Source: Nannocystis bainbridge (GTDB taxonomy: Bacteria > Myxococcota_A > Polyangia > Nannocystales > Nannocystaceae). From it: a stretch of DNA of 64,000 bases. The notes beneath the pieces were generated by a model, which made no database searches, had not been told where the DNA came from, and saw only the letters and a list, made by a program, of their open reading frames with translations. Shown piece after piece: positions 4,463-63,389 of this stretch; position 1 is the stretch's first letter; each line of letters opens with the position of its first letter. The DNA is taken from positions 1,472,001 through 1,536,000 of the forward strand of contig NZ_JAQNDL010000001.1 in assembly GCF_028368995.1 (NCBI RefSeq), given 5' to 3'. The translations under genes and the position numbers were made by a program.

Positions 4463-4536
4463 GGCGTTTGTCTCTGCGAACGAGAGATGATGGGCGCTCA
4501 CCGCGGGCCCTGCAGGATTCGACGCGCAGGCGAAGT

Positions 4537-4558
4537 CATATGTCCCCGAGGACATGTG
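4537..4558. repeat. REP-like palindrome CATATGTCC-N4-GGACATGTG
   Basis: Same family as 1292-1313. Confidence 0.65.
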
Positions 4559-4807
4559 CGACGATCGAGCCCAGCCTTGGCGGAGGCGTCCGCGGGCGCT
4601 CACCCTGTGCATTCGCGGCGGCATCGCGCGAGCTGCCGTGGTTGTGCCGCCCAAAGATCAGGTGTCCTGCGACCGCGATTCAATTGCCCCGGTGCCCGAT
4701 TTATCGCCGAACCCGGGCAGCGCCTTCTCCGGGACGAACCCGCCGATCCCACAACGCGCACGCAACGGCATGCGACCGCAGACCGCCGCCCCTCGCCCGA
4801 CCCTGCA

Positions 4808-5764
4808 TCAGCGCATGCGACGATCGCCGCGGCACGCCCGAGCCTCCGTATACACCCCGGCCTCCGGCAGCTCGGCCTCGATGAACGTGCGCCCCTTCAC
4901 CGCCAATTCGAGCGCCGCCAGTTGGGCGCCGAGCACATCCGGCGGACACGGGGCGCTGCAGTCCACGCTGTCACCCCCGCGCACGAAGCTCCCCATCGAC
5001 CCGGCCATGGCCATGTTCGGACCTTGCGGATACGCCGTCAGGCGGCTGCAACGGCTGCAGCGACGTGGTTGACCGTCGACGCACTGCTCCTCCCGCACGC
5101 TCGCCTCGCTGCACACGATCTTCAGCGTGTACGCGGCAGCGCCGAAGTACGCGGCCCCCGCCTTGACCTCGAAGGCGGGCCCGTCGGCCAGCGTGGCGAA
5201 CGACCCGAGCCCGAACTCGCCGTCCGGCTGCCAGCGACCGCGAGCGTCGCGTTCGAACGCCTCGCCGTGCGGCCCTGTGGTGATGATCCCACGCTCGGTG
5301 ATGTCGACGCCCTCGTAGCGCACGGTCTTCCGGGTGCCCGCGACCGTGGCGACCTCGCGCGCGCGACCGAAGAACCCGTCGTCTTCCCACCCGCCACGCA
5401 CCGCGAAGCAGCGGTCGCCGCGGGCCCGCACCCACAGCCTCGTGCGAGCGCCGACGAGCCGGCGGAACTCCGCCCACCGCTCCTCCTCGTCCCCCGCCTC
5501 CCGGTGCTCCGCCAGCTCCGGCAACGTCGCCACCGCCCAAGCCCAGCGCGCCGACACCTCCATCGCCTCGACCTCGGCGAGCAGCCGCGACGACTCGCTC
5601 ACCGCCTCCGCCGGCTGCGGCTCAGGCGCGAGCGCCGGTTCGGCTTCCACCACCACCGCTACAGCCGGCTCCGAGGGCGGAGGCACCGGCATCGCCGCCC
5701 CGGCCGGCGCGCGCGCGCACGCCAGCAGGACCGCAGGAGCGACGAGGACCAGGCCAGCTCGCAT
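4808..5764 (-). CDS. Hypothetical Cys-containing lipoprotein
   Basis: MRAGLVLVAPAVLLAC lipobox; GC-rich codon usage; several Cys near the C-terminus. Confidence 0.6.
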   Translation of the reverse strand: MRAGLVLVAPAVLLACARAPAGAAMPVPPPSEPAVAVVVEAEPALAPEPQPAEAVSESSRLLAEVEAMEVSARWAWAVATLPELAEHREAGDEEERWAEFRRLVGARTRLWVRARGDRCFAVRGGWEDDGFFGRAREVATVAGTRKTVRYEGVDITERGIITTGPHGEAFERDARGRWQPDGEFGLGSFATLADGPAFEVKAGAAYFGAAAYTLKIVCSEASVREEQCVDGQPRRCSRCSRLTAYPQGPNMAMAGSMGSFVRGGDSVDCSAPCPPDVLGAQLAALELAVKGRTFIEAELPEAGVYTEARACRGDRRMR

Positions 5765-44600: not shown

Positions 44601-47600
44601 GTGGGCCGAGGGCCGACAGGTCCTCAACTCCTACGGCCCCACCGAGTTCAGCATCTTTGCGGCCCAGGCCTGGTTCGATCCGTCGCGCCCGGAGCGGTTC
44701 TCGATCGGCCGGCCCGTGCACGGCGTTCGAATCCACCTGCTCGATGGCAAGATGCGACAGGTCCCGCTCGGCATGCCCGGCGAGATCCACCTCGCCGGCG
44801 TCGGTCTGGCCCGCGGCTATTTGAATCGCCCTGCCATGACCGCCGAGCGGTTCGTGCCGGATCCCTTCTCGAACCAGCCCGGCGCCCGCATGTATTGCAC
44901 CGGCGACCTCGCGCGCTGGAACGAGGACGGCGAGCTCGAGTTCCTCGGCCGCGTCGATCATCAGGTCAAGATCCGCGGCTTCCGCGTCGAGCTCGGCGAG
45001 GTCGAGGCGGCGCTCGCGTCTCATCCCGCGGTCGGATCGGCCGTCGTCGTCGCGCGCGAGGACTCGCCAGGGAGCATGCGCCTCGTCGCTTATGTCGTGG
45101 CGAAGCAAGACGACCTTACGCCAGCTTCGCTGCGTGAGCACCTGCGGAGCGACCTGCCCGACTACATGCTCCCGTCGGCGTTCGTCTTCCTCGACGCCCT
45201 GCCGCTGAGCACCAACGGCAAGGTCGACCGCAAGGCCCTGCCCTCTCCCGAGGCGATGCGTGGCGCCGACGAAGCCTTTGTCGCCCCGCGCAACGACGTC
45301 GAGCGCGCCCTCGTGGCCATCTGGGAACAGCTGCTCGAGGTGCGCCCCATCGGCATCGACGACGACTTCTTCGCGCTCGGCGGCCACTCGCTGCTGGCGG
45401 TGCGCGTCGCGTCGGCAGTCAAGACGAGGCTCGGGCTCGGGCTGACGCTCGCCACCTTGCTGCGACGGCCGACGATCGCGGCCCTGGCGGCGTCGCTCGT
45501 CGAGATGGAGACGCGGCCCGGACCCGCGCTCTCACCTTCCCCGCGCGGCGCGGCCGCTCCCGCATACAGCGGCCTCTCGGGGACCGAGCGGCGGATCTGG
45601 TTCGTCGACAAGCTCGCGCCCAAGGCCCGGTCGTACCAGGTCCCGCACGTGTTCGTCGTCCGTGGCGCGCTCTCGCTGCCGGCGCTGCGTCACAGCGTGG
45701 AGCGGCTGGCAGAGCAGCAGGAGATCCTTCGCACCACCTATCCCGAGATCGACGGCGTGCTGATGCGAAGGGTGGCGGACAGCGCCTCGATCCCGCTGCG
45801 CATCGAGGACGTCTCGACGCTGCCCGAGGCAATCCGAGAAGCCGCCTTGCGCGCCCACCTCGAGTCCGAGATCGGGACCCGCTTCGATCTCGCTACCGGC
45901 CCGCTGACGCGCGCACTGGTCGTGAGCCTGGGAGCCGAGCACCACGTCGTGCTCGTCATTCAGCACCACATCATCACCGACGAGTGGTCCAGCGGCGTGC
46001 TGCTGTCCGAGCTCTCACGCCTTTACGAGGCGTGCTGCCGCGGCGAAGCGGCGGAGTCGCCGGCGCTCGCCTACCAGTTCGCCGACTATGCCCGCGCCGA
46101 GCAGGAGGCGCTCACGACCGGCGGCTTCGCGGCGTCGCGGACCTACTGGAAAAACCAACTGGCGAACGTGCCGCGGCTGGAGCTGCCCATCGTTCGCGCC
46201 GCTCCGGCGCGCGGTCCCGGCCTCGAAGCGAGCGCCGCGCTGCGGATCCCGCTGGCGGTGAGCCGCGGGCTGCAGGCGCTCGCGCGGGCCCACGGCTGCA
46301 CGCTTTTCATGGCCTGGTATGCCGCCTTCGCGGCGGTGCTGTCGCGGTACAGCGGCCAGCAGGACTTCGGGCTCGGCGCCGTGATCGCAAACCGCGAGGT
46401 GCCGGGCGCGGCCGAATTGCTGGGGTTCTTCACCAACACGGTGGTGCTGCGCACCGACCTCGCGGGCGATCCCTCGTTCGCCGAGCTGCTCGCGCGGGCG
46501 CGGCGGACCGCGCTCGAGTCCTACGAGCACCAGGCGCTGCCGTTCGACGTCGTCGTGCAAGATCAGGGGCTGGCGCGCCAGGCCGGCGAGAGCCCGCTGT
46601 TCGACGTGACCTTCTTCGAGGTGACGCCGCCGACGACGAGCGCCGGGGCCGGTTGGTCGCCGCTCGTCGAAGCGATGCCGACCGGCCTGGTGACCGCGAA
46701 GCAAGCGCTGGCGCTCGGGGTGCTTCACGACGCGGAGGGGACCGAGGTCTCCCTGGCCTACGACACGACCCGCGTCGACGCCGGCGCGGTCGAGCGGCTC
46801 GCCAGGCACCTGCAGGCGCTGGTGCAGGACGGGGTGCTTCACCCGGACAAGCGCCTGTCGCAGCTGGACCTGCTGACGGCGGCGGAGCACACGGAGCTCG
46901 CGGCGTGGAACGACACGACGGCGGCCTATCCCGCCGAGAGCTGCGTGCACGAGCTGTTCGCGGCGCAAGCCAGGCGCACGCCGGCCGCCGTGGCGCTGGT
47001 GTTCGGCGCGCAGCAGCTGACCTACCAGGAGCTCGACGAGCGCTCGAACCAGCTGGCTCATCACCTGCGCGGCCTGGGCGTCGGTCCGGAGGTGCTGGTG
47101 GCGCTGTGCGTCGAGCGGTCGCTCGAGATGGTCGTGGGGCTGCTCGGGATCCTCAAGGCGGGCGGGGCCTATGTGCCGCTCGACCCGAGCTATCCGCGCG
47201 AGCGGCTGGCCTTCATGCTGACGGACGCAAGGCCCGCCGTGCTGCTCACGCAGGCGCGCCTGCGTGACAGCCTCCCGCCGCACGAGGTCGTGACCGTGCA
47301 CCTCGACGCGGGCGCGCCCGCGTGGAAACAGCCGCGCACGCCCCACGCGGTCGCCGTGGGGCCGGACCACCCGAGCTACGTGCTCTACACGTCGGGTTCG
47401 ACGGGGCGGCCCAAGGGCGTCCAGATCCTTCACGCGGCGCTGACGAACCTGCTGCACGCGTTCGCCGAGCAGACGGCGATCGGGCCCCAGGACGCGCTGC
47501 TGGCCGTGACCTCGATGTCGTTCGACATCGCCGGGCTCGAGCTCTTCATGCCCCTGATCCGGGGGGCCGCGATCCACCTGGTGTCCCGCGACGACGCGAG

Positions 47601-50016
47601 CGACGGCGAAGCGCTGGTGAGCGCCCTCGATCGCGCGACGATGATGCAGGCGACGCCGGCCACGTGGCGCATGGTGCTGGACGCCGGCTGGAAAGGTGAG
47701 CGGCCGCTGCAGGTGCTGTGCGGCGGCGAGGCGATGACGCCAGATCTGGCGCTCGAGCTGACGCGCAGGGCATCCCGGGTGTGGAACGCGTATGGCCCGA
47801 CCGAGACGACGATCTGGTCCGCGCTGTCGCGCGTCGACGCGGGCCCCAGCCCCGTGCGGCTCGGGCGAGGGATCGCCAATACGCAGCTCCACGTGGTCGA
47901 CAAAGATCTGAGACAGACGCCGGTGGGCGTCCCGGGCGAGCTTTACATCGGCGGGACCGGGCTCGCGCGCGGGTACCTGGGGCGGCCTGAATTGACCGCG
48001 GAGCGCTTCGTGCCGGACCCGTTCTCCGCGGTGCCCGGGGCGCGGATGTATCGCACGGGCGACCTCGTGCGCTGGGACGCGAACGGACAGCTCGAGTTCC
48101 TCGGGCGCATCGATCACCAGGTCAAGATCCGCGGCTTCCGCATCGAGCTCGGGGAGATCGAAGCAGTACTGTCGTCGCACCCGTCGGTGCGAGCGTGCGC
48201 CGTGGGCGTGTGGGAGCCCGCGCCCGGTGACAGGCGCCTGGTCGCGCACGTGGTGCCCGGCGAGGGCGCATGCACCGACGACACATTGCGCGAGCACCTC
48301 GGCGCCGCGCTGCCGACATACATGGTCCCCTCGCTGTTCGTGCGGCTCACGGCGCTGCCGCTGAGCCCCAGCGGCAAGGTCGATCGCAAGGCGCTGCCGC
48401 CGCCCGACGCGACGCGCGACGCGGTCGAGACTTCCTGCGTGGCGCCGCGGAGCGAGGCCGAGCGCGTGCTCGCCGAGCTGTGGTCGGCGGTGCTGCAGGT
48501 GTCGCCGCTGGGGATCCACGACAACTTCTTCTCGCTCGGCGGGGACTCGATCCTGGCGCTGCAGGTGATCGGTCGCGCCAAGCGAGCCGGCCTCCATCTC
48601 ACGGCGCGCGACATGTTCACGCATCAGACGGTGGCCGAGCTCGCGCTGGTGGTGCGGCGAGAGAGCGCCGTGCTGGCCGAGCAGGACGCCGTGCACGGGA
48701 CGGTGCCGCTGACGCCGATCCAGCGCTGGTTCCTGGACGCGGATCCCGTCGATGCTCATCACTACTGTCCCGCGATGCGCTGGACGCCGCCTGCCGGGCT
48801 CTCGCCCGAGGTCGCCGCAGAGGCGCTGCGCATCGTCGCGGCCCAGCACGACGCGGTGCGATTGCGATATCGTCGCAGCGAGTCCGGGTGGGTTCAGGAG
48901 CACGAGGCGGGGGCGACCCTCGCGCTCGAGCGGGTCGATCTTTCGGCGGTGGACGGCGAGGCCCGCGACGCCGCCGCGCTCGAGGCGGTGGCGAGGCTGC
49001 AGCGCGCCATGAACCTCTCCAGCGGCCCGATCTGCCGCGCTGCGTGGCTGGACCTGGGCGAGGCGGGCGCGCAGCTGGTGCTCGTCCTGCACCACCTCGT
49101 CACCGACGGCGTGTCGTGGCGCATCGTGTGCGAGGACCTGCAGCGCGCATGCGAGGCGCTGAGCGCCGGACGGACGCCGGAGCTCGGACCCAAGACGACG
49201 TCGCTGCGCCAGTGGTCCGAGCGACTGCACGCGTTCGTCGCCGGCGGCGGCCTGGCGGAGGAGCTCGGGTACTGGCAGGCGCAGTGCGCTCGCCGCATGA
49301 CCGCGATCGTGCGCGACCGCGACGTCGCGCCGGGCAGCTTCGGCGACAGCCGCACCGTGGAGGTGGAGCTCTCGCCGGCGGATACCAGCGCCCTGCTGCG
49401 CGCGGTGGGCTCGGCGCACGGGACGGAGATCGACGCCGTCCTGCTGTCGGCCCTTGCATCGGCGCTGAGCACCGCCTCCGCGACAGACACGGTCTGCGTG
49501 GCGCTGCAGCACCACGGCCGCGAGCCTGTCGTGGCCGACGTGGAAGTGTCCCGCACCGTGGGATGGTTCTCGACGCTGTTCCCGCTGTGGCTGAGCGTGC
49601 AGCCGGACAACGACCCCGCCGTATTGCTGCGCGACGTGCAAGCGCAACTGCGGTCCGTGCCCGGCCGCGGCCTCGGCTACGGCTGGCTGCGCTATGCGCA
49701 TCCGGACGCGAGCGTGCGCGCGTCGCTCTCGGTGCCCATGCCGGTGGTGTTCAACTACCTCGGGCAGTACGAGGCCGGCTCGCCGTGGTCCTTCGCCGGC
49801 ACGGCGCCCTCGAGCATCAGCCCCAACATGGCGCTGTTTCACGAGCTCGTGGTGAGCTGCATCGTGGTGGACGGGCGGCTGCGGCTCGGCTGGAGCTTCA
49901 GCAGCGCCGTCCACGACACCGCGACGATCGAGCGGATCGCAGCCGCGTTCCTGTCGTCGCTACGGCGAATCATCGAATGCGCGCGCGGGCGGAGGGAGGA
50001 CACGTCTTGCAACTGA
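32698..50016 (+). CDS. Five-module NRPS: A-T-C-A-T-E-C-A-T-C-A-T-C-A-T-E*, no TE (start may be 32724 or 32848)
   Basis: Five TSGSTGxPK A domains, T motifs GGHSL/GGDSI, C motifs HHIITDEWS (x3) and HHILADGWS, E domains HHLVVDGVSW/EGHGRE and terminal HHLVTDGVSW/QHHGRE. Confidence 0.97.
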   Translation: MPGHRSGINMSMHDESRDVRGFEPRTEQNVAAQQDAGSPADAGDVLRWAGMADPNSPIGRLPQFASDELRQLAAWNDTAVAYPPARCIHQLFEDQAARTPDAVALVFGDQRLSYHELDERANQLAHHLCGLGVSPEVLVGLCVERSLEMVVGLLAILKAGGAYVPLDPGYPRERLAFMLKDARPAVLLTQAHLRDSLPPHDVAIVQLDEGDWQHQPRTPPAVDVGPDHAIYVIYTSGSTGQPKGVLNTHRGLYNRLRWMQRAYGLKASDAILQKTPLSFDVSGWELWWPLIEGARMVIAAPEGHKDPRYLAAILAAADVTVVHFVPSMLAVFLAATEPRERASLRLVFASGEALPEHLRAAWYAGNRGELHNLYGPTEAAIDVTSHACRPDETGPVPIGKPIDNTRTYVLDAAFRPVPVGVAGELYLSGVQLARGYLHRPGLTAERFVPDPLVPGARMYRTGDLARFRDDGALEFLGRIDHQVKIRGFRIELGEIEAAIAAHPSVRDCVVVAREDATGDKRLVAYVVGKDATASELRERLGATVPEYMVPSAFVFLDALPLNPSGKVDRKALPAPETTRSATETYVAPRTDVERALVAIWEELLEVRPIGVRDDFFLLGGHSLLAFRVLSAIQARFGSAPSLTALLRNPTIEALAVLWDPRAERPAPPISLLPRADGEAPFAGLSGTERRIWFLEKLSPQARSYQIPHVFEVASALCVRALRDSVDALVLRHAILRTTYPEVDGAPRREVADDVSIPIRVEDVSALPAAQRDPALRAMLAAEVESRFDLERGPLTRVLAVTTAADRHVVVVHQHHIITDEWSWGLLLAELSSLYEASRRGQTTALAPLAYQYSDYARAERAALAGDGLAASRAYWKQALVEVPRLDLSIVAPAAGAVSGPEGFVSLRLSPEASRQLQALAHESAATPFMAWYAALAAVLSRYSGQQDFGLGAVVANRQIAGTEGMLGFFTNTVVLRTDLAGDPTFAELLARARRTALDAYEHQALPFDVVVQDQGLARQAGENPLFDVTFFEVTPPTTGAAAGWSPRLGAVPEGVTTAKNALAVSVQHTAEGTVVEVLYDTTRVSRIAAERLCGHLSTLVTDAAAHPDRRVSELELLTDEEIEKLAAWNDSPPTDPAARCIHELIAEQAVRAPQAVALEQDGQPLSYGEFEAQVNRLAHHLRALGVGPEVRVALCVQRSFDMVIGLVAILKAGGAFVPLDPSYPPDRLSLLLAEAGAPVLLTHAAIEGRLATPNVTVVRLDVDAAQWASLPTTPPASGVTLDHANYVVFTSGSTGKPKPVINEHRGLAARVAFQRRHIAVHPGDRILFSAAIAFDGAIVDWMLSLCNGATCVLPSNALDAVEGIAECLEHRAITFSFIPPAMLRVLRCRAPALRHITLAGDKTSPALVAQWAEGRQVLNSYGPTEFSIFAAQAWFDPSRPERFSIGRPVHGVRIHLLDGKMRQVPIGMPGEIHLAGVGLARGYLNRPAMTAERFLPDPFASQPGARMYCTGDLARWNEDGELEFLGRVDHQVKIRGFRVELGEVEAALASHPAVASSVVVAREDSPGSTRLVAYVVAKHEALTAASLREHLRGDLPDYMLPSAFVFLDALPLSNNGKIDRKALPAPEAMRGADEAFVAPRTAAERALAEVWSEVLRIAAVGLHDNFFALGGDSILAIQVVGRAKRAGLHVTVRDMFMHQTVAELVQVARSSSAAVAEQAVTGTAALTPSQQWFFSKNPEEAHHFNQAWMWTPSPALSPALVAEALQVVLRQHDALRLRYDHSESGWVQIHAEDAALPLARIDLSALPPDVRRAAVEASADDLQGSLSLSAGPVARAAWLDLGEQGTRLLLVVHHLVVDGVSWRILHEDLERVCEALLAGRTPALAAKTTSFRQWSERLHTFVAAGGLSQELDFWRAQCARGITPLPRDREAAPGTVGDSRTVDVELSEAETRALLHDVSAAYRTEINDVLLSALAAALSKFCDTDTVCVTLEGHGREALIEDVEVSRTVGWFTSMFPVWLTVPATDDPGTLLKGIKEQLRSVPNRGVGYGWLRYAHSDEAVRAALSVDPPVVFNYLGQFDMGTQGRSMFAPAAEPTGRTTSSRMALWHALAVNGGVWQGRLRFEWTYSAAIHDEATVARLAARFVASLRRIIDHCAAGEAFGYTPSDFPLARIEQPALDGLFGAMRDVESVYPLSPLQAGLLFHALNEPESPTYTVQLALQLGGDVDATALESAWKTVLARHAVYRTAFLWQGVPEPLQVVRRSVEFAMPTHDWSSLEVAEAEARWEALRREERAAGFDLGRAPLARVVLVRLPGGRTWMLKTTHHILADGWSMPVVLGELQAAYAANRGGRRLALPEPVAYERYIAWLATRDQAASSAFFAAYLAGVEEPTRLPFPPPAQAPAEATREHEQRDASLTAAETEALTAFARRHGLTLNTVVQGALAQLLGRTTGRTDVVFGVTTSGRSAPLRGIERMVGLFINTLPLRARWSGSEIVLEWLQRLQAEQVELRVHEATPLYEVQRASAVGGGRALFDTLLVFENYPVDEAAQQAEALPIVDFQAFEQTSYPLAITVAVGTTLDLRWMWEPAALRGEDIEQLWGHLRTVLLDMVAHPGRRLSELGLLTEAEHATLAAWNDTVVAYPPARCIHALFEEQAARTPDAVALVFGDQRLSYRELDERANQLAHHLCGLGVSPEVLVGLCVERSLEMVVGLLAILKAGGAYVPLDPGYPRERLAFMLKDARPAVLLTQARLRDSLPPHDVATVQLDEGDWQRQPRTSPAVDVGPDHAIYVIYTSGSTGQPKGVLNTHRGLYNRLRWMQRAYALKASDAILQKTPLSFDVSGWELWWPLIEGARMVIAAPEGHKDPRYLAAVLAAADVTVVHFVPSMLAVFLAATEPRERASLRLVFASGEALPEHLRAAWYAGNRGELHNLYGPTEAAIDVTRHACRPDETGPVPIGKPIDNTRTYVLDAAFRPVPVGVAGELYLSGVQLARGYLHRPGLTAERFVPDPLVRGARMYRTGDLARFRDDGALEFLGRIDHQVKIRGFRIELGEIEAAIAAHPSVRDCVVVAREDATGDKRLVAYVVGDQAIVSELRERLGATVPEYMVPSAFVFLDALPLNPSGKVDRKALPAPDASRGPAETFTAPRTDVERALVAIWEELLEVRPIGVRDDFFALGGHSLLAVRVVSAVKARLGFGLTLATLLRRPTIAALAASLAGIETQPGPALSPAPRGAAEPAYDGLSGTERRIWFVDKLAPEARSYQVPHVFVVRGALSLPALRQSVERLAERQEILRTTYPEVDGALMRRVADSVAIPLRVEDVSALSDSAREVALRAHLEAEIAVPFDLATGPLTRALVVSLAAEHHVVLVLQHHIITDEWSSGVLLSELSRLYEACCRGEAAELPALAYQFADYARAEQAALTTGGFAASRAYWKHQLAGVPRLELPIVRTGPERGPEASVTLGVPPAASRALQALARDHGCTPFMAWYAALTAVLSRYSGQTDFGLGAVIANREVAGTADLLGFFTNTVALRTDLAGDPSFAELLARARRTALDAYEHQALPFDVVVQEQGLARQAGENPLFDVTFFEVTPAKGDAAAGWSPISGPVPRGVTTAKNALAVSVQHTAEGTVVEVLYDTTRVSRVAAERLCGHLSTLVTDAAAHPNRRVSELDLLTDEETEKLAAWNDTPRTDPAARCIHELIAEQAVRAPQAVALEQDGQPLSYGEFEAQVNRLAHHLRALGVGPEVRVVLCVERSFDMVIGLVAILKAGGAFVPLDPSYPSDRLSLLLAEAGAPVLLTHAAIEDRLATPNVKVVRLDVDAAQWASQPSTPPASGVTLDHANYVVFTSGSTGKPKPVVNEHRGLAARVAFQRRHIVVHPGDRILFSAAIAFDGAIVDWMLSLCNGATCVLPSNALDAVEGIAECLEHRAITFSFIPPAMLRVLRCRAPALRHITLAGDKTSPSLVAQWAEGRQVLNSYGPTEFSIFAAQAWFDPSRPERFSIGRPVHGVRIHLLDGKMRQVPLGMPGEIHLAGVGLARGYLNRPAMTAERFVPDPFSNQPGARMYCTGDLARWNEDGELEFLGRVDHQVKIRGFRVELGEVEAALASHPAVGSAVVVAREDSPGSMRLVAYVVAKQDDLTPASLREHLRSDLPDYMLPSAFVFLDALPLSTNGKVDRKALPSPEAMRGADEAFVAPRNDVERALVAIWEQLLEVRPIGIDDDFFALGGHSLLAVRVASAVKTRLGLGLTLATLLRRPTIAALAASLVEMETRPGPALSPSPRGAAAPAYSGLSGTERRIWFVDKLAPKARSYQVPHVFVVRGALSLPALRHSVERLAEQQEILRTTYPEIDGVLMRRVADSASIPLRIEDVSTLPEAIREAALRAHLESEIGTRFDLATGPLTRALVVSLGAEHHVVLVIQHHIITDEWSSGVLLSELSRLYEACCRGEAAESPALAYQFADYARAEQEALTTGGFAASRTYWKNQLANVPRLELPIVRAAPARGPGLEASAALRIPLAVSRGLQALARAHGCTLFMAWYAAFAAVLSRYSGQQDFGLGAVIANREVPGAAELLGFFTNTVVLRTDLAGDPSFAELLARARRTALESYEHQALPFDVVVQDQGLARQAGESPLFDVTFFEVTPPTTSAGAGWSPLVEAMPTGLVTAKQALALGVLHDAEGTEVSLAYDTTRVDAGAVERLARHLQALVQDGVLHPDKRLSQLDLLTAAEHTELAAWNDTTAAYPAESCVHELFAAQARRTPAAVALVFGAQQLTYQELDERSNQLAHHLRGLGVGPEVLVALCVERSLEMVVGLLGILKAGGAYVPLDPSYPRERLAFMLTDARPAVLLTQARLRDSLPPHEVVTVHLDAGAPAWKQPRTPHAVAVGPDHPSYVLYTSGSTGRPKGVQILHAALTNLLHAFAEQTAIGPQDALLAVTSMSFDIAGLELFMPLIRGAAIHLVSRDDASDGEALVSALDRATMMQATPATWRMVLDAGWKGERPLQVLCGGEAMTPDLALELTRRASRVWNAYGPTETTIWSALSRVDAGPSPVRLGRGIANTQLHVVDKDLRQTPVGVPGELYIGGTGLARGYLGRPELTAERFVPDPFSAVPGARMYRTGDLVRWDANGQLEFLGRIDHQVKIRGFRIELGEIEAVLSSHPSVRACAVGVWEPAPGDRRLVAHVVPGEGACTDDTLREHLGAALPTYMVPSLFVRLTALPLSPSGKVDRKALPPPDATRDAVETSCVAPRSEAERVLAELWSAVLQVSPLGIHDNFFSLGGDSILALQVIGRAKRAGLHLTARDMFTHQTVAELALVVRRESAVLAEQDAVHGTVPLTPIQRWFLDADPVDAHHYCPAMRWTPPAGLSPEVAAEALRIVAAQHDAVRLRYRRSESGWVQEHEAGATLALERVDLSAVDGEARDAAALEAVARLQRAMNLSSGPICRAAWLDLGEAGAQLVLVLHHLVTDGVSWRIVCEDLQRACEALSAGRTPELGPKTTSLRQWSERLHAFVAGGGLAEELGYWQAQCARRMTAIVRDRDVAPGSFGDSRTVEVELSPADTSALLRAVGSAHGTEIDAVLLSALASALSTASATDTVCVALQHHGREPVVADVEVSRTVGWFSTLFPLWLSVQPDNDPAVLLRDVQAQLRSVPGRGLGYGWLRYAHPDASVRASLSVPMPVVFNYLGQYEAGSPWSFAGTAPSSISPNMALFHELVVSCIVVDGRLRLGWSFSSAVHDTATIERIAAAFLSSLRRIIECARGRREDTSCN

Positions 50017-56740: not shown

Positions 56741-58411
56741 TCACGTGAGCAGCTCGGCGAGGGGGAGCGTGCGGCAACCCCTCGTGCGCAGCCACGCCTC
56801 GACGTCCGCGCCTTCGGCGGTGTGAAAGCCGGCGGCGATCGAGGCGAGCCCTCGCGCGAGCCGCCAGGGCTCGGCGGACTGCTCGAGCATGTCGCAGACG
56901 CGGAAGGCCGCGCTGATGCCCGCCAGCGGCGGTTCGACCAGCGCGGCGCGCAGCGCCTGAATCAGCGGTGATTGAGCCGGCGCGAGCCAGAACAGCCGCG
57001 AAGCGAACGGCGAGCCGGCGGGCAGCTGCCCGGCGATCGCCGCCGGCAGCTCCGACGGCCGGCCGACGGCGATCCACTCGTCCGCCGGCGCGGTCGCCTG
57101 CGTGGCCGACCCGCCGCGCGCCGGCCCGAGTTCGAGCGCCGTGAGTTGCCCCGGGGCCAGGTCCGCGAGCGCGACTTCGAGGCAATGTTCGCCGGGCCCG
57201 GGGGCTTCGCTGCCGTACTTGAGGCCGTCCGGATGGTGGTAGAGCACGAATTGCTGCCACTCGTCGTCGCTGCGATCGACCACGAAGATCCCGCGCCCCA
57301 CGGCCGCCAGCGGGCGACGCAAACCGGAGTTGACCACGCGGCTCCGCATCTGGACCGTGTCGAGCGCCGCGCCGTCGGCCGCACGCACAGTGAAGAACGA
57401 CAGTTGCGCGAACCAGCGGTCGATCGGGAGCAACTGACACCCGCGCCGCCGCAACCACGCCTCGACCGCGTCGGCGCTGCCCGTGTGAAAGCCAGTCGTC
57501 ACCTGGATCGTGCGGCGACCGCCGATCGCCTGCTGCTCGGGCGCGATCAGGTCGGTGAGGCAAAAGGCGTGCCCGGCGATCCTGCCCATCTCCTCGGCGA
57601 TCCGGCGCCCGTCGTCGCTGGCGTCGCACACGGGCTCGGGGATGGCCGCGAACAGCTCGTCGGGGATCGAGGAGCTCGCGGCCACCAGGAAGAACAGCTT
57701 GTCCGCCAGCGGGCCAGCTGCGGGCACCGGCTCGGTGAACGCCGGCGGCAGGTCGCGGAGGCGATACACGAGCAGCCGTTCGCCCGCGAGCAGGCTGGTG
57801 ATGTCGACCGCGCGACACTTCGCGGCGTTGCCCACCCGGCGGACTTCGAAGCCCGGGAACAGCACCGGCAACACCGCCTGCATTCGCCCCTGCGAGTCCT
57901 CCACGCGGAGATGACGGCCGCGCGGCTGGTAGAGGAACATGTGCTGCCAATAGGCCCAGCCGCGCGCCTCGAGCAGCGCGTCGAGGTAGACGCTGAACGA
58001 ATTCGTCAGCGCTCGCGCCTCGCCGGAGTCCTCCTCGACCAGCGAGAAGCCGCCAGAGCGGCGCGCGAGCCCGAGGTAGCTGGTGTCGTACGGAAAATCG
58101 ATCGGGATCCAGCGACCGCCGCCGATGCGCTCGGCGACCCGCGCGAGCGCACCGACGGGGAGCATCCGGATCGCCCCGCGCGCGCCGAAATCACGCCACC
58201 GCTCCTGGCGATGCGACCAGCGAATCTCGACCCCGTCGAGCTCGGCGTAGAACGCCCGCAGCGCGGCAGGCAGGCGCCGGCCGAGCTCGGCCTCGGCCCC
58301 GTCGAGCTCGGCCCCCGACGTCGGTGCCCCCAGCGTCTGCTTGTCGGTCGTGATGTCGGGGTGCGCGGCGAGCTCGTCGATCAGCGCATGGAAGCGGGCC
58401 CGCAACGTCAT
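56741..58411 (-). CDS. SMI1/KNR4 (SUKH) domain protein with a duplicated C-terminal domain
   Basis: GAPTS.AEL..AEAELGRRLPAALRAFYAELDG; two copies of GFHT....VEAWLR.RGC..LP. Confidence 0.75.
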   Translation of the reverse strand: MTLRARFHALIDELAAHPDITTDKQTLGAPTSGAELDGAEAELGRRLPAALRAFYAELDGVEIRWSHRQERWRDFGARGAIRMLPVGALARVAERIGGGRWIPIDFPYDTSYLGLARRSGGFSLVEEDSGEARALTNSFSVYLDALLEARGWAYWQHMFLYQPRGRHLRVEDSQGRMQAVLPVLFPGFEVRRVGNAAKCRAVDITSLLAGERLLVYRLRDLPPAFTEPVPAAGPLADKLFFLVAASSSIPDELFAAIPEPVCDASDDGRRIAEEMGRIAGHAFCLTDLIAPEQQAIGGRRTIQVTTGFHTGSADAVEAWLRRRGCQLLPIDRWFAQLSFFTVRAADGAALDTVQMRSRVVNSGLRRPLAAVGRGIFVVDRSDDEWQQFVLYHHPDGLKYGSEAPGPGEHCLEVALADLAPGQLTALELGPARGGSATQATAPADEWIAVGRPSELPAAIAGQLPAGSPFASRLFWLAPAQSPLIQALRAALVEPPLAGISAAFRVCDMLEQSAEPWRLARGLASIAAGFHTAEGADVEAWLRTRGCRTLPLAELLT

Positions 58412-60186
58412 GCGGCGCCCTGCCCTGTCGCTTGCGAGAGCACGGCGGACCAGATCGACGGGAGCAGTTGCACGCCGGCCCCGGTCCCGTCGGGCGGACG
58501 GGCGAGCAACATCGAGTCGGCCTTGTCGCCGGCGAGCGCGTCCAGGGCCGCGAGCGCGCCGCCCGGATCGGCGGGGAGGAAGGCGGCGGCGACCTGCCGC
58601 GCGACGGTGTGGCGGTCCGCGGGGGTGACCTTCCTGGCGGCCTTGAGCGCGAGCTCCGGCTGCCCGTGGCGCATCGCGCGGTGCACCAGCGAGCTCGTGA
58701 CTGCGTTCTTGCCGTAGGTGTCCTTCGCGTAGGCCTGAATGCGCGGCAGATCGGCGAGGTCGGCCTCGAGCGCCGCCGCCACCGCGGACCGATCGCCCTG
58801 CGCGGCCACGATGCGGAGCCGCAGGTCCGCGAGCTGGCTGCGCATGCTCGCCTCGATCCCGACGTCGTATTGCGTCCGCTTCTTGGAAGCGAGAAGACCC
58901 TCGATGGCCGCCAGGATCGGGTCGAGCTCGGCGTGTTCTCCCCGCTCGAGTGCCAGCCCCGCGAGGTCGCTCAAGGCTCCCACCTGCGCCATCACGCTGC
59001 CACCGGTCCGCGGATTCAGCTGGCGCAGCCGCTCGCGCGCCTGAGCCACCGTCTCGACGCCCAGGCGGATCCTGTACAGGGTGAACTTGTCGGACTCGGG
59101 CCAGAGCTCCGGGTCGCGCGCGAGCCGCTTCGCCGCCTCGATCTCGCCGAGCAGGAGGTGGCGCTCGACGAGCTCCGAGGCCAGCGGCTCCTCTTCGGCG
59201 CGGGGCGCCAGCACGTGCCGCGCTTCGGCGTCGCGACCCGCCGCCAGGAGGTGCCTGCCCAGCGGGATGGCCGCGTCCGACTCGAGCGCGACGAGCGTGT
59301 CGAGGTGCTCGCGTGCCCAGGTCGCGCACGCCCGCACTCCGTCGCCTCGCTTCAGCGCGATGTGGCGGTAACCGGCTTCGATGGCGTTGATCAGCGCGAG
59401 CGTGGTCTTCGGATCGTCGACGGCGATCCACAGCAGCGAGTCTGCGTACTGCAGGACCTCGCCGAGCGACTCCGGGTCCTCGCGCAGCCAGCGATCGAGC
59501 GTGCGACGCACCGACTTCGCGGCGCCGTTCGCGACCTGCGCGCGCAACAGCGGCACGAGCGCGGTGAAGCGGTCGGACTCGCCCCACTCCGGCTCGCCCG
59601 CGAACGCCTCGTCGATCACCGCGTCGACGAGCTGCTCCAGCGCGGCCCCCCGCCCGCCGGCACCGACAAGAGCGAGCGCCTCGACGGCGTTGGCGGCCCA
59701 CAACGGGCGGCCCCTGGGGTCCTTGGCCGCGCTCTTCACGAACGCGTCGAGCGCCGCGTCCACGGAGCCGGCTCCGGCCGCCGCGGCGATAGCGAGGGTG
59801 GGTGCCCGCAGGTCGGCGCGGAGCCCCTGGGCGAGCGAGGCCGCCAGCTCGGGCCGTCCGGCGGCGACGCAGCGGCGCGCCGCCTCCTCGATCGCAGCCG
59901 ACTCGCGCAGACGTTCGACGCTGCCCGCGGCCTTGCGGCTCCGGTCCAGCAGCGCCTCGACCGTGAGCGTCTGAGCCGCGGCGGACGCTTTTCCCGGCCG
60001 CGCGGGCTTCGGCTTCGCGGGCGCGGCGGACTTTGCCTTCGCGGTCGCGGGGACCTTCTTCGCGGCAGACTTCGTGGACTTTACCTTCGCAGTCGCGGGG
60101 ACCTTCTTCGCGGACTTTGCCTTCGCAGTCGCGGGGACCTTCTTCGCGGCAGACTTCGCGGACTTCTTCTTCGGCGTGGCACTCAT
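58408..60186 (-). CDS. Hypothetical helical-repeat protein with a histone-H1-like Lys/Ala N-terminus
   Basis: KKVPATAKAKSA repeats at the N-terminus; Ala/Leu-rich helical body; stop overlaps the SMI1 gene start (ATGA). Confidence 0.65.
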   Translation of the reverse strand: MSATPKKKSAKSAAKKVPATAKAKSAKKVPATAKVKSTKSAAKKVPATAKAKSAAPAKPKPARPGKASAAAQTLTVEALLDRSRKAAGSVERLRESAAIEEAARRCVAAGRPELAASLAQGLRADLRAPTLAIAAAAGAGSVDAALDAFVKSAAKDPRGRPLWAANAVEALALVGAGGRGAALEQLVDAVIDEAFAGEPEWGESDRFTALVPLLRAQVANGAAKSVRRTLDRWLREDPESLGEVLQYADSLLWIAVDDPKTTLALINAIEAGYRHIALKRGDGVRACATWAREHLDTLVALESDAAIPLGRHLLAAGRDAEARHVLAPRAEEEPLASELVERHLLLGEIEAAKRLARDPELWPESDKFTLYRIRLGVETVAQARERLRQLNPRTGGSVMAQVGALSDLAGLALERGEHAELDPILAAIEGLLASKKRTQYDVGIEASMRSQLADLRLRIVAAQGDRSAVAAALEADLADLPRIQAYAKDTYGKNAVTSSLVHRAMRHGQPELALKAARKVTPADRHTVARQVAAAFLPADPGGALAALDALAGDKADSMLLARPPDGTGAGVQLLPSIWSAVLSQATGQGAA

Positions 60187-60630
60187 GGACGTGGACTCGG
60201 TTCGCTGGAGGTTGGTGACCGGGTGCGAGCAATGCGAGGTCTGGTCGTCTTCGCAGAGGATAACCTCGTAGAAGGTGCCGGTGAGGTTCTTCGCCGTTTC
60301 GCGGGTCGCGGGGAGAGACACGGCGCTCGACAGGCCCTCTCACGGCAGGACGCAGCGAGGAGCTCGACCGTCTCACGAAATTTGTCGAGCCCCGGACCTA
60401 CGGCCCCGCCTCATGCCCTGCCCTACCGAGAACACGGGCGACCGGGCACCTCACGTGTGTTCAGGGAGACGCATGACCAGCGGCGACTCGCCGCTCGTCA
60501 CGCTCTACTGGATGCCCTCGAATCCAGGTCGGCCGTCGCGGTCATCGACGCTGAGCGCGACCTCGAAGCGCTGCTCGTGGCGAGCTCCGACGCCATCACG
60601 CAGCCGAACATCCGGCATACTCTGCGCGGC

Positions 60631-61035
60631 ATGTCCTCCCTCGAGCTCGTGGCCCTGATCGTCGACGACTACGACCCCGCGATCGAATTCTTCGTCGGCG
60701 CGCTCGGCTTCACATTGGTCGAGGACTCGCCGGCGCACACCAACGACGGGCGCTCGAAGCGTTGGGTGGTCGTGCGGCCGCCCGGGGCGCAGACGGCGAT
60801 CTTGCTCGCGCGCGCCGACGGGCCGCGTCAGGCCGCGGCTGTCGGCGAGCAGTTCGCCGGCCGCGTCGGCCTGTTCCTGCGCGTCGACGACTTCGAGGCC
60901 GCACACGCGCGCATGCTCGCGGCCGGCGTCGAGTTCGTGTCTGCCCCGCGCACCGAGCCGTACGGGCGCGTCGCCGTGTTCCGCGACATCGCCGGCAACC
61001 GCTGGGACATGCTCGGCCCGGACCCGCGCCGCTGA
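60631..61035 (+). CDS. VOC/glyoxalase family protein
   Basis: VDDYDPAIEFFVGALGF, RWVVV.P, LFLRVDDF, EPYGRVAVFRDIAGNRWD. Confidence 0.9.
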   Translation: MSSLELVALIVDDYDPAIEFFVGALGFTLVEDSPAHTNDGRSKRWVVVRPPGAQTAILLARADGPRQAAAVGEQFAGRVGLFLRVDDFEAAHARMLAAGVEFVSAPRTEPYGRVAVFRDIAGNRWDMLGPDPRR

Positions 61036-61086: not shown

Positions 61087-62205
61087 TCACTCGGCGGCGA
61101 GCACCGCCAGCGCGTCCGACGACTCGTAGTAGACGGCGTCGAGCCCACGCAGCAGCGCGGCCCGCTGTTCGCGGGAGAACACCGGCTCTAGCGACTTCAA
61201 GACGCGAGGGTCGTAGAAGCGGAAATACACGCGGTCCGCCTCGCCCTCGACCTCGACCATCAAGAACTGTCGCAGGTGCCGCCGCACCGCCTCGAGCGGC
61301 TTCTTGCTGACGAGGAACACGCCCCACGCGTCGCCCCAGCCCTCATGGACCAGGCGCTCGAGCAGCAGGGAGTCGGCCCGCAGCTGGACCACGTACGGCG
61401 CCACGTCGTCGAACGCGCGGCCCCTCTCGCCGTCGAACAGCGAGGCGTAGGGATCGACGCTCTCCTCGATGAGCTGGAGCGCCCGCTCGGAGCGCGCGGC
61501 GTCGACGACCGCGTAGAGCGTGCCCGCGTCGCACGGGGCCCGGAGCGTGGCGAGAGCGGCGAGCCCCGCCTCGCTCGGCGTGACCGGCCCGGGCGGCGGC
61601 GTGTAGTCCTCGACGAGGAAGCGGAAGCTCGTGCGGCCGGCCGTCATCCACCCGCGGCTGGCCAGCTCGCCGACGAAGCACGGCTCGCCGTCGACGGCGA
61701 TCCGGTGCGGGTCGAGGGCCTGCACGTGGGCGCACACGCCGTCCCACACGATCTGGAAGTGCGGCGAGCCGCCGGCATCGGCGTGGACCACGAAATCGGA
61801 CCGCGCAGTGCCCACGGTGCGCGGCTCACCCGGCTCGAGGATCAGCTTGTGGTAGCTCTCGCGGCCCGACCATACTTGCAAGATCGCTCGACGCCTCGTC
61901 GCCGGCCCGAGCGGCAGCAGGTGATAGCGCGCGAACGTGTAGTCGAGCTCGCCGAGCGCGTCGGCGTATTCGGGGTCGAGCTCGCCGAACTCGCGGAGGC
62001 CGAGCGGACCGAGGTTGGTGCGCGCGCGATCGTCAGGGTGAGGGATCCGGCCGCGGGCGGTGGTCCGGGCCATGAACTCGAGCTGGACGGCGATCGTTCG
62101 CAGCGCGGGCCAGCGCGAGGGGTCGAGCGCGCGGGTGTGGGCGCGGGCCTCGGCGAGCACCTCCGCGAAGGCGTCGCGCGACGTGATCCGCATCAGCTCG
62201 GACAC
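61087..62205 (-). CDS. Fusion of a Tsi6-like immunity domain, a degenerate FHA domain and a DUF4123 T6SS adaptor
   Basis: N-terminal QL.F......NLG....REF.E.DPEY...L....Y (Tsi6-like); central beta-rich FHA-like segment; C-terminal LYAVVDAA, APY.V.L, WG, HLR, YFRFYDPRVL (DUF4123). Confidence 0.75.
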   Translation of the reverse strand: MSELMRITSRDAFAEVLAEARAHTRALDPSRWPALRTIAVQLEFMARTTARGRIPHPDDRARTNLGPLGLREFGELDPEYADALGELDYTFARYHLLPLGPATRRRAILQVWSGRESYHKLILEPGEPRTVGTARSDFVVHADAGGSPHFQIVWDGVCAHVQALDPHRIAVDGEPCFVGELASRGWMTAGRTSFRFLVEDYTPPPGPVTPSEAGLAALATLRAPCDAGTLYAVVDAARSERALQLIEESVDPYASLFDGERGRAFDDVAPYVVQLRADSLLLERLVHEGWGDAWGVFLVSKKPLEAVRRHLRQFLMVEVEGEADRVYFRFYDPRVLKSLEPVFSREQRAALLRGLDAVYYESSDALAVLAAE

Positions 62206-62208
62206 GCG

Positions 62209-63198
62209 TCAGCCCCACGGGTGAAAGCGCTTGGGGATCATGACCTGCGTGGCGCCGCCCTTGCAGTGCACGGGATCCGCGAGCGACCAATCGTCGACGA
62301 TGGGGGCGGCGGTGCTCTGGAGGCCGAGAGCGGGATCGCCGAAGGTGACCTCGCGCGGCTCGCGGACCACGGGCGGCGGGCTCGGCTTGCCGTCGACGAG
62401 CGCGTAGGCGGAAGACGAGCAGCCGACCTCCTCCGGCGTGATCGACGGGTCGAGCGTGAAGTACTGGCCGGTGCCGGCGCCCGGGATGCTGCGCTGAAAC
62501 AGGGTCTGCTCGCTGAACGAGCGCACCGAGACGGGCCGGCTCAGGTCGATGCCCTTGATGTGCGAGAGGATCTGGCTCGGCTTCATCTTGCTGGGCCCGT
62601 GCGCGGCGTAGAACTGATAGGCGACGGCGTAGCGGGTCTGCACGCGCAGCTCCGCGAGGCCGTCGTCCGCGTCGTCCTGGGCGGCGAGCTCGTGCTTCGA
62701 GACGTCGAGGTCGGCGAAGGCGTCGCGGCCGCTGCGGGCGCCGGGCGGCGGCTCGTCGTCGTCGAGGGTCGCGCTGCCCGGGTCGGACGCGATCGGCTCG
62801 GCGGAGTCGTCGAAGGTGTCGACCGCGACGCGCTGGCGCTCGCACTCCTCACAGAAGGGCGTCCCGCGGCGCGCGGCGACCCGGAGCGCGAAGCTCTGCG
62901 GGGTGTCGCCGATGATCACGGTCGGGCAGCCGGCCGTGATCATGTCGCCCGAGGCGTGCACGGCGGGATCGGTGCGGCGCGCGGCCTGGCGGTGATTGAT
63001 CAGCACGGTCGCCGAGCCCTGCTTGATCTTGTCGGTCGGACCGACCGGGAAGCACACGACGCGATCGTCCTTCCGCGCCGCCGGGAGGAAGCCGACGATC
63101 ACGTCGGCGCTGCCCGAATAGATCGGCCCGCCGACGTGCGGCACGGGCCCGTCTTTGGGGCAGCTGTGATAGTCGCTGATCCGGGCGGCTTCGGGCAT
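62209..63198 (-). CDS. PAAR-domain effector with a C-terminal Tse6-like (Ntox46) NAD(P)+ glycohydrolase toxin
   Basis: AARISD.H.CP..H..GPI..GS..V.....PAAR; PFCEEC linker; SHIKGIDLSRPV, GQYFT, LQSTAAPIVDDWS, GGATQ. Confidence 0.8.
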   Translation of the reverse strand: MPEAARISDYHSCPKDGPVPHVGGPIYSGSADVIVGFLPAARKDDRVVCFPVGPTDKIKQGSATVLINHRQAARRTDPAVHASGDMITAGCPTVIIGDTPQSFALRVAARRGTPFCEECERQRVAVDTFDDSAEPIASDPGSATLDDDEPPPGARSGRDAFADLDVSKHELAAQDDADDGLAELRVQTRYAVAYQFYAAHGPSKMKPSQILSHIKGIDLSRPVSVRSFSEQTLFQRSIPGAGTGQYFTLDPSITPEEVGCSSSAYALVDGKPSPPPVVREPREVTFGDPALGLQSTAAPIVDDWSLADPVHCKGGATQVMIPKRFHPWG

Positions 63199-63389
63199 GA
63201 CAACGGCCTTCTGCGGGTTCGTGGCAGCCTAACAGAAGACGCGGAGGGCGACACACGAACGGCGATGTGGCCATGGGACGCATCATGCGCGCCGCGGTCC
63301 GCGGATGCGTGCGCGACGCGGGCGCGCGCGCGCTTTCGTCGGCGCAATGGACAGACGCGGGTCATCGCGGGCATGATGGTCGGACGCCC

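Follow-up and report, generated by a model that had tools for sequence, protein, structure and literature searches.

A conserved Tsi6-FHA-DUF4123 fusion follows a PAAR-Ntox46 effector in Nannocystis bainbridge and suggests a cassette in which one protein would neutralise and help to load a toxin

Could a single polypeptide both neutralise a type VI secretion system (T6SS) toxin and act in its loading on the secretion spike? This question is raised by two adjacent minus-strand genes of the soil myxobacterium Nannocystis bainbridge, at positions 61,087 to 63,198 of a 64,000-nucleotide stretch of contig NZ_JAQNDL010000001.1 (assembly GCF_028368995.1, forward-strand positions 1,472,001 to 1,536,000; hereafter the window). 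The original prediction, made from the letters of the window alone, had proposed that the first gene encodes a PAAR protein ending in a Tse6-type toxin (here P0001) and that the second (P0002) encodes a Tsi6-like immunity domain, an FHA-like segment and a DUF4123 adaptor in one chain. Both open reading frames (ORFs) lie exactly where it placed them, and the GTG start of P0002 comes 3 nt past the toxin stop (TGA-CGC-GTG), a gap that fits translational coupling. We consider it rather probable that the two genes form an orphan T6SS effector cassette whose fusion protein neutralises the toxin and, through predicted loading and docking steps, acts in placing it on the spike.

The Tsi6-FHA-DUF4123 fusion is real and conserved. 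P0002 is a single ORF, as originally proposed, and a word-index protein search with it returned 127 proteins at E ≤ 0.001; both PF13503 and PF18660 are present in each of 75 clusters (P0003-P0077; 368-408 aa, 54-93% identity), whose named members all come from Nannocystis. The source genome alone contains exactly four Ntox46 matches, all above the cut-off, together with four full-length fusion genes, every one of which lies directly after a PAAR-Ntox46 gene (4/4). Moreover, a 1699-nt contig from an RNA-seq library (root metagenome), ~95% identical to the window, covers positions 61512-63204 and thereby spans part of the FHA segment, the Tsi6 domain, the gene junction and the entire toxin gene. 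Its sole indel, an in-frame 6-nt insertion at 62217, lies inside the toxin gene and leaves the fusion frame intact; the contig is compatible with a single transcript, though it is no proof of transcription. At the level of reads, some runs left parts of the stretch uncovered, and metagenome contigs showed several "joints" at a likeness of 90%, from which we draw nothing.

A query with the N-terminal domain of P0002 found matches in six of ten other Nannocystis genomes (1-5 copies per genome), the four genomes without a match being 64-84% complete, and in none of the 14 other genera of the family or the 16 sampled genomes of the class; the fusion architecture recurs in deeper Myxococcota lineages at ~40% identity. 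No intact stand-alone close relatives of residues 1-100 were found among shorter proteins: the four matches were all truncated or frameshifted fusion copies, which extend into the FHA segment before they stop short or change frame. One such copy, in Nannocystis pusilla (L022 4001-5109; P0124), has a frameshift inside the FHA segment, and its annotation reads "Tsi6 family protein" (186 aa). When a profile of ten N domains (fused and stand-alone) was compared with 1.84 billion cluster representatives, 326 clusters matched at E ≤ 0.001. Among the best 150 of these 326, 130 were at most 150 aa long, ten measured 151-330 aa, six 331-400 aa and four more than 400 aa, which bears out the premise of the original prediction that Tsi6 relatives are normally small, stand-alone proteins; within the same 150, the Tsi6-FHA-DUF4123 layout was found in five of the six members of the 331-400 aa class (P0040, P0085, P0267, P0272, P0353). 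Clustering of the representatives at 50% identity shrinks the large Nannocystis family to a few rows in these counts. Other long Tsi6-like proteins are built differently: three of 1269-1370 aa (P0273, P0278, P0330) contain four to five separate Tsi6-like stretches with no Pfam match at E ≤ 0.001 and may be tandem immunity-domain arrays in one polypeptide, P0386 (306 aa) combines Tsi6 with ankyrin repeats, and P0264 (838 aa) has an N-terminal Tsi6 domain followed by an unannotated remainder.

The partner of the fusion belongs to the Tse6 family. In P0001, Pfam recognised PAAR_motif (PF05488; 56.6 bits, cut-off 27) and Ntox46 (PF15538; 43.8 bits, cut-off 25), an architecture common to at least 70 Nannocystis clusters, while NCBIfam gave weak sub-threshold matches only on the cassette (T6SS_PAAR_dom 29 bits, Tla1 46 bits). 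Against PDB sequences, phmmer matched the toxin domain to Tse6 (4zv0_A, E 4.6e-9), and the alignment pairs LQSTAAPIVDDWS (P0001 residues 293-305) with LRSTAAPTDDFWS; this string and SHIKGIDL (residues 212-219), both quoted in the original prediction, are indeed present. In the AlphaFold2 model (41 homologues), the PAAR domain was poor (predicted local distance difference test, pLDDT, 35-45) and residues 170-329 reached a pLDDT of ~90. A Foldseek search with the toxin fold gave three PDB matches at E ≤ 0.001, every one of them Tse6 (4zv4_C, E 5.5e-12, TM-score 0.80; 4zv0_A, E 6.2e-9, root-mean-square deviation (rmsd) 3.1 Å), with Tne2 and other NADases far behind. D302 of P0001 aligns with the second Asp of the Tse6 "TDDFWS" motif and, like Q235, is invariant in 41/41 sequences. 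By sequence it would be the counterpart of Tse6 Asp396, with a numbering offset inferred from the 163-residue chain ending at residue 430, the length of Tse6 in a supplement table of PMC7714669. D396A is a catalytic-dead Tse6 allele (bioRxiv 10.1101/2022.09.14.507963), and D396 is described as required for hydrolysis. P0001 is therefore best described as a putative Tse6-type NAD(P)+ glycohydrolase, with NADase activity predicted. As originally noted, it has no transmembrane helix (maximum Kyte-Doolittle 19-residue mean 1.08), and because such helices are absent no Eag-type chaperone should be needed.

The first domain of the fusion resembles the immunity protein of that same toxin. The Pfam Tsi6 family (PF18660) matched residues 25-90 of P0002 with E 3.4e-4 and matched 41/41 aligned homologues at E ≤ 0.1 (best 1.7e-9), and a profile of these 41 homologues placed two Tsi6 chains at the top of the PDB (4zuy_A, E 0.0017; 4zv0_B, E 0.004). 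In a VIA fold search of 48,161 chains, 4zuy_A again matched the N domain best (Z 11.4, 94/96 residues, 23% identity), at an rmsd of 4.3 Å and with a Z of a kind that can arise by chance in helical bundles; because the Z is ambiguous by itself in such bundles, the Tsi6 reading rests on sequence, fold, a plug residue and gene position together. The plug residue is R71, at least 90% conserved in the 41 sequences and present in 9/10 sequences of alignment A3, which aligns with Tsi6 Lys62; according to PMC10539506, Lys62 is the basic residue that occupies the Tse6 catalytic site. As for gene position, a Tsi6-domain gene directly follows a Tse6-family toxin gene at all four copies of the source genome and also at related loci L020-L022 and L034. 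Homology and gene position thus point to an immunity role for the N domain, much as the original prediction had it.

The C-terminal part of P0002 is a recognisable T6SS adaptor lobe. The AlphaFold2 model (pLDDT 90.6, predicted TM-score 0.85) consists of a helical segment (10-92), a beta sandwich (107-198) and an alpha/beta segment (212-369), and DUF4123 (PF13503) was matched at residues 230-349 of 372 with 113 bits (cut-off 25.8), confirming that assignment of the original prediction. The closest fold was Tap3 in the Tke5-Tap3 complex (9r8g_B; VIA Z 11.9 over 146 residues), P0002 219-372 aligning with residues 13-184 of its 290-residue chain; such adaptors usually continue into a variable lobe for effector binding, but this C-terminal lobe is absent here, and P0002 ends where it would start. 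As described in PMC11582642, the conserved DUF4123 lobe binds the C-terminal helix-turn-helix of VgrG, the effector is bound by the variable second lobe or by co-TecT, and TecT, which is the conserved lobe alone, binds the C-terminal extension of its PAAR. The DUF4123 adaptor part of the fusion is under constraint: it scores above the Pfam cut-off in 41/41 homologues, with an invariant FR.YDPR motif, and its Nei-Gojobori dN/dS is 0.40-0.65 in six paralogue pairs.

A possible docking site for this lobe was found in the effector, directly after the PAAR domain, where the sequence GD.PQSF..R.AA.RGTPFCEECER is conserved; G112, T113, P114, C116 and E117-R121 of P0001 are invariant or at least 90% conserved in the 41 sequences. 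When the source genome was searched with family hidden Markov models (HMMs), all six of its DUF4123 genes carried an FHA domain and each lay 1.2-3.2 kb after a PAAR gene with a PFCEEC-like motif. The motif was thus present in 6/6 PAARs with an FHA-DUF4123 gene no more than 3.2 kb away, as against 0/2 PAARs without a DUF4123 gene nearby. Across the related loci described below, a PAAR gene lay upstream on the same strand in 60 of 79, and in all but one (33/34) of those in which an FHA domain was detected. From this linkage, we infer that the post-PAAR extension is a candidate docking site for the DUF4123 lobe. The same PAAR and PFCEEC head is joined elsewhere to unrelated warheads, namely RelA/SpoT-like, Zeta toxin and HNH domains (P0217, P0231, P0245), and judged by their sequences PAAR proteins with this motif are a polymorphic toxin class in Myxococcota.

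Table 1. Features of the two-gene cassette in the window, with the range of amino acid identity among the four paralogous copies of the source genome.
Feature	Position in window	Strand	Details and basis	Identity among paralogues
PAAR-Ntox46 effector gene (P0001)	62209..63198	-	329 aa, ATG start, stop 62209-62211; ORF list and Pfam	
PAAR spike-tip domain, residues 1-97	62908..63198	-	Pfam PAAR_motif residues 17-81; phmmer against PDB	69-82%
Post-PAAR extension, residues 98-127, conserved motif TPFCEECER	62818..62907	-	AlphaFold2 helices 100-111 and 117-127; conservation in 41 sequences	
Acidic disordered linker, residues 128-190	62629..62817	-	pLDDT <50 over 129-164	45-67% (least conserved part)
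Tse6-family NAD(P)+ glycohydrolase toxin domain (predicted), residues 191-329	62212..62628	-	Pfam Ntox46 residues 195-321	49-75%
Tsi6-FHA-DUF4123 fusion gene (P0002)	61087..62205	-	372 aa, GTG start, stop 61087-61089; ORF list and Pfam	
Tsi6-like helical immunity domain (predicted), residues 1-100	61906..62205	-	Pfam Tsi6 E 3.4e-4; profile against PDB; fold	60-76%
Degenerate FHA-fold domain, residues 101-205	61591..61905	-	VIA and Foldseek	66-73%
DUF4123 conserved lobe, residues 206-372	61090..61590	-	Pfam 113 bits; Tap3 fold	58-63%

To place the fusion among its relatives, 79 related loci from species-representative genomes were scanned with HMMs of the five parts. A fused gene follows PAAR-Ntox46 in N. 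punicea, in Nannocystis sp. RBIL2, in N. pusilla (where it is frameshifted) and in a Myxococcota metagenome-assembled genome (MAG), in which vgrG directly precedes the PAAR gene. Elsewhere the parts are encoded separately. In Minicystis rosea DSM 24000, a PAAR-toxin gene is accompanied by a Tsi6 of 94 aa that stands alone (34.7 bits, above the cut-off) and, 8 nt after it, by a separate 295-aa FHA-DUF4123 protein whose FHA domain is above its own cut-off; a Polyangiaceae MAG has vgrG, PAAR-Ntox46 (52 bits), a 111-aa Tsi6-like ORF (18 bits) and an overlapping FHA-DUF4123 ORF; and other relatives have vgrG, a PAAR protein with a different toxin (e.g. Zeta-toxin-like), an unrelated immunity-sized ORF and FHA-DUF4123. 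The source genome itself contains two further DUF4123 genes without Tsi6, in clusters of the order vgrG, PAAR(-effector), X, FHA-DUF4123. Because the same parts are separate neighbours elsewhere, the fusion appears to have joined adjacent immunity and adaptor genes.

Several of these loci show further genes or layouts. FHA-DUF4123 is often followed by two ORFs, one small (115-259 aa, sharing a pattern at the N-terminus) and one large and unannotated (367-649 aa), as at L023 4836-7039, L024 5283-7085, L025 5176-7352 and L030 3305-4763 and, in the source genome, at L016 6591-7370 (-) and L015 9403-10173 (-). In the vgrG-linked relatives, neither the ORFs after FHA-DUF4123 nor the immunity-sized ORFs had a Pfam match above the cut-off; the former may be the adaptor's classical cargo and its co-factor. 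At some loci of Polyangiales and Myxococcales (L064, L071, L078, L088, L093, around 4000-5370), two tandem DUF4123 lobes follow PAAR, with an FHA domain between them in two cases.

We propose the following mechanism for the Nannocystis cassette. The first gene product would consist of a PAAR spike tip, a helix-turn-helix-like extension, the acidic linker and the Tse6-family toxin, and the second would be a single cytoplasmic three-domain protein. Its Tsi6 domain would bind the toxin and block the active site, R71 taking the role of Tsi6 Lys62, and would double as the effector grip in place of the missing adaptor lobe; the degenerate FHA domain, probably a spacer or a protein-protein module, would link it to the DUF4123 lobe, which would dock either on the post-PAAR extension, as TecT does on PAAR, or on the C-terminal helix-turn-helix of VgrG. 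The toxin would in this way stay neutralised and in place on a spike formed by one of the 13 VgrGs of the source genome until firing, and the same fusion protein would protect against toxin injected by kin. The loading role is suggested by the conservation of the architecture, the tight PAAR-adaptor linkage and the TecT precedent. A bolder version, which we hold only tentatively, is that the immunity domain has replaced the effector-binding lobe of Tap adaptors, such that one protein clamps both ends of the PAAR toxin (Tsi6 on the catalytic domain, DUF4123 on the post-PAAR helix-turn-helix) and keeps it neutralised until stripped off at firing.

A number of observations weigh against this interpretation. 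P0002 itself scores 21.1 bits against Pfam Tsi6, below the cut-off of 26.9, so that the test named in the original prediction came out positive by E-value and for the family as a whole and negative by the cut-off for this member, and the Tsi6 fold match is as loose as described above. The role of the Tse6 Gln (Q333) with which Q235 aligns is a presumed one. The post-PAAR helices were modelled with low confidence (pLDDT ~46-57). A PAAR-fused toxin sits on VgrG unaided, with no obvious requirement for an adaptor, and in the vgrG-linked relatives FHA-DUF4123 is followed by the small and 370-650 aa unannotated ORFs, which could be the real cargo and have no equivalent downstream in the window. The dN/dS ratios, which were 0.2-0.8 across the Tsi6, FHA and DUF4123 domains of the six paralogue pairs, are inflated and hard to read at a G+C content of ~95% at third codon positions (GC3).

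The phylogeny adds two points of the same kind. In a careful maximum-likelihood tree built from the FHA-DUF4123 region with all 55 rows retained, 14/14 fused forms fell in one clade of 17 (support 93/97), in a polytomy with three unfused proteins. Within it, the fused forms made two groups and were monophyletic in 0/200 bootstrap trees, and the adaptors of two unfused Tsi6 loci lay elsewhere in the tree rather than closest to the fused adaptors. No well-supported branch contradicts a single origin of the fused forms. The adaptors of L034 and L037 had been expected as the sister group of the fused clade, which they were not in the tree. Given the scatter of fused and unfused adaptors, toxin-immunity cassettes and adaptors have thus recombined more than once, and the known unfused loci are analogues and not direct ancestors.

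Some of these points would suit an immunity protein with a vestigial tail, in which Tsi6 does all the work and FHA-DUF4123 is the relic of an adaptor gene without a loading role. The PAAR toxin needs no tether, vgrG and a further cargo gene are both absent from the window, the ligand-binding residues of the FHA domain are lost, and DUF4123 is the least conserved domain among the paralogues (58-63%), with the highest dN/dS in 4/6 pairs. We nevertheless regard this explanation as unlikely. A relic would hardly be expected to retain a full DUF4123 domain and the FR.YDPR motif throughout the 41 homologues, nor the whole architecture in the other Nannocystis genomes and at ~40% identity in deeper Myxococcota, and the truncated copies resemble pseudogenes, not a favoured form.

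The converse, an adaptor only, whose Tsi6-like domain merely grips the cargo while protection comes from elsewhere or is unneeded, seems quite improbable to us. It could draw on the sub-threshold Tsi6 score of P0002 and on the absence of the cargo-binding lobe that adaptors usually have. Between its borders, however, a convergent glyoxalase gene on one side and a divergent kinase-like gene on the other, the cassette includes no other immunity-candidate ORF; the basic residue at the plug position is conserved; in unfused relatives, a bona fide stand-alone Tsi6 occupies the same position; and a domain bound to the active site would neutralise the toxin anyway.

No more credit is due to a third explanation, in which the FHA domain gives phosphorylation-dependent docking or regulation, PpkA-Fha1-like, maybe via the neighbouring kinase-like gene; we judge it very unlikely. 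The FHA fold itself, as originally suggested, is clear (VIA Z 14.3, rmsd 2.1 Å over 93 residues to GarA, 6i2q_B; Foldseek 2lc1, E 1.3e-6), and a kinase-like ORF diverges from the cassette from 63267 on (+; Pkinase 24.6 bits, under the cut-off). Canonical FHA domains contact phosphothreonine through an Arg (GR), a Ser (SxxH) and an Asn (TNG). Judged by alignment with canonical FHA-DUF4123 relatives (e.g. P0119-P0122, which keep G-R, S-x-x-H and S-T-N-G), all three contacts are replaced in the fused family: there is no Arg after Gly (G-T), Gly stands for Ser and His for Asn, the structural His being the sole survivor of the motif. Moreover, Pfam FHA matched only 1 of 41 family members. Since the phosphothreonine-contact residues are lost, while distant FHA-DUF4123 relatives keep them, phospho-dependent docking is unlikely, and the docking through FHA that had been suggested for P0002 does not hold in that sense. 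The kinase-like neighbour was rejected as an FHA partner, as it is not conserved (a coarse GC3-filtered ORF listing of the flanks of the other three paralogues, made with no domain searches there, revealed no evident kinase gene) and the binding residues are gone.

That the cassette serves an extracellular contractile injection system (eCIS), and not a T6SS, is suggested by its PAAR domain, for which phmmer found SalCis10 as the best PDB match (9rce_c, E 7.5e-18, versus E 5.4e-6 for the T6SS PAAR 8gra_J), and by a supplement of PMC7714669, which lists Nannocystis exedens with both T6SS and eCIS. This is highly improbable, as DUF4123 is a T6SS adaptor family and, in the source genome and at five related loci, homologous PAAR genes immediately follow VgrG genes of T6SS type (TIGR03361, above the cut-off). 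Finally, an assembly or sequencing artefact joining two genes, a possibility raised in the original prediction and favoured by nothing beyond its generality and the one frameshifted N. pusilla copy, has practically no likelihood, for the frame is kept in 75 independent clusters from genomes and metagenomes and in the four paralogues of the source genome, and independent contigs cross the domain junctions with no frame-breaking indels.

The favoured reading, a neutralising and loading fusion, also has to fit its genomic setting. G+C content is ~70-73% all along the cassette, and a compositional break is absent. The downstream border is a convergent glyoxalase/VOC gene (60622-61035, +), and a scan of the minus strand for promoters and terminators gave nothing useful. 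VgrG is absent from the window, and the vgrG linkage of the DUF4123 part, seen in related loci L023, L024, L025, L033 and L034, is not found here. The source genome (11.05 Mb, 5 contigs) has three TssC loci, on contigs 2 and 5 and none on the contig of the window, and 13 VgrG genes above the TIGR03361 cut-off, the closest of which is ~253 kb from the cassette, in agreement with the orphan status that had been proposed for it.

Other ORFs of the region were noted in passing. By far the longest in the window is a single 5772-aa ORF at 32698-50016 (+). Some 3 kb from the cassette, an ORF at 56741-58420 (-) has an SMI1/KNR4 (SUKH-1) match just under the cut-off (24.4 versus 25.4 bits) and adjoins an unannotated 637-aa ORF (58408-60321, -); SMI1/KNR4 (SUKH-1) proteins are often immunity proteins of polymorphic toxins. 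Beside one of the paralogous cassettes, the gene after the fusion (L014 5935-7119, -) has a Peptidase_M15_3 match of 25.3 bits and could encode a cell-wall-acting effector.

Among known systems, the cassette resembles Tse6 (Tne1)-Tsi6 of P. aeruginosa (4ZV0, 4ZV4, 4ZUY): its effector starts with PAAR and ends in an NAD(P)+ glycohydrolase domain that has its Pfam family and fold in common with Tse6, the catalytic Asp (D396, here D302) is kept, and a small helical Tsi6-type domain with a basic plug residue is encoded directly downstream. In contrast to Tse6, the Nannocystis effector has an acidic linker and a post-PAAR extension in place of transmembrane helices, and its cassette is not beside vgrG; in contrast to Tsi6, the immunity part is the N-terminal third of a 372-aa fusion and not a stand-alone protein of 90-100 aa. 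With the Tap adaptors (Tap-1/TEC, Tap6, Tap14, Tap3; PMC4557670, PMC11582642; 9R8G) P0002 has in common the conserved alpha/beta lobe, by Pfam and fold, and relatives encoded in vgrG clusters, whereas it lacks the variable C-terminal lobe and has extra N-terminal domains, its gene comes after the effector and not before, and the partner effector is PAAR-fused. A possible parallel is TecT/co-TecT with PAAR and TseT (PMC11582642), where the adaptor likewise is the conserved lobe only and the effector grip comes from a different module; there the co-chaperone is separate and the effector is not PAAR-fused, whereas here the grip would come from an immunity domain fused in cis, and PAAR protein and effector are one and the same. 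Lastly, FHA-DUF4123 fusions occur twice in the vgrG clusters of the source genome, and P0002 differs from them by its degenerate FHA and by the Tsi6 domain added in front.

The FHA domain is the commonest extra domain of DUF4123 proteins (PMC4557670; 1.1% in PMC7714669), and these two papers name neither a function for it nor an immunity domain. The supplements of PMC7714669, a 2020 survey, contain a 337-aa N. exedens PAAR-Ntox46 protein as a DUF4123-associated effector, while "Tsi6" and "FHA" are absent from them. A Stenotrophomonas paper with both Tsi6 and DUF4123 was set aside since "Tsi6" is there a local name and unrelated. We found no description of a Tsi6-DUF4123 or other immunity-adaptor fusion in the literature, papers on Tsi6 and DUF4123 having been judged mainly by title and the start of the abstract. 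The novelty claimed in the original prediction thus stands for the literature and is tempered by the databases, where the protein is multi-copy across the genus and auto-named by NCBI ("immunity protein Tsi6 family protein" or "DUF4123 domain-containing protein"). The components all belong to known families; the Tsi6-FHA-DUF4123 fusion is apparently undescribed.

The advance is therefore one of architecture and mechanism, not of a new system. T6SS immunity and loading adaptors are usually treated as separate functions, and here a conserved, multi-copy fusion joins both; P0001, moreover, presents a Tse6-family PAAR toxin without transmembrane helices, and the candidate docking motif after its PAAR domain is common to toxins with unrelated warheads. 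The fusion, a compact three-domain protein for structural work, and its unfused counterpart in a cultured relative offer a direct handle on what becomes of an immunity protein as a cytoplasmic toxin goes through loading and firing. If the bolder version of the mechanism is true, the T6SS loading machinery can include immunity proteins as integral parts, and a whole class of polymorphic PAAR toxins of Myxococcota would have in the PFCEEC extension a portable tag for adaptor docking.

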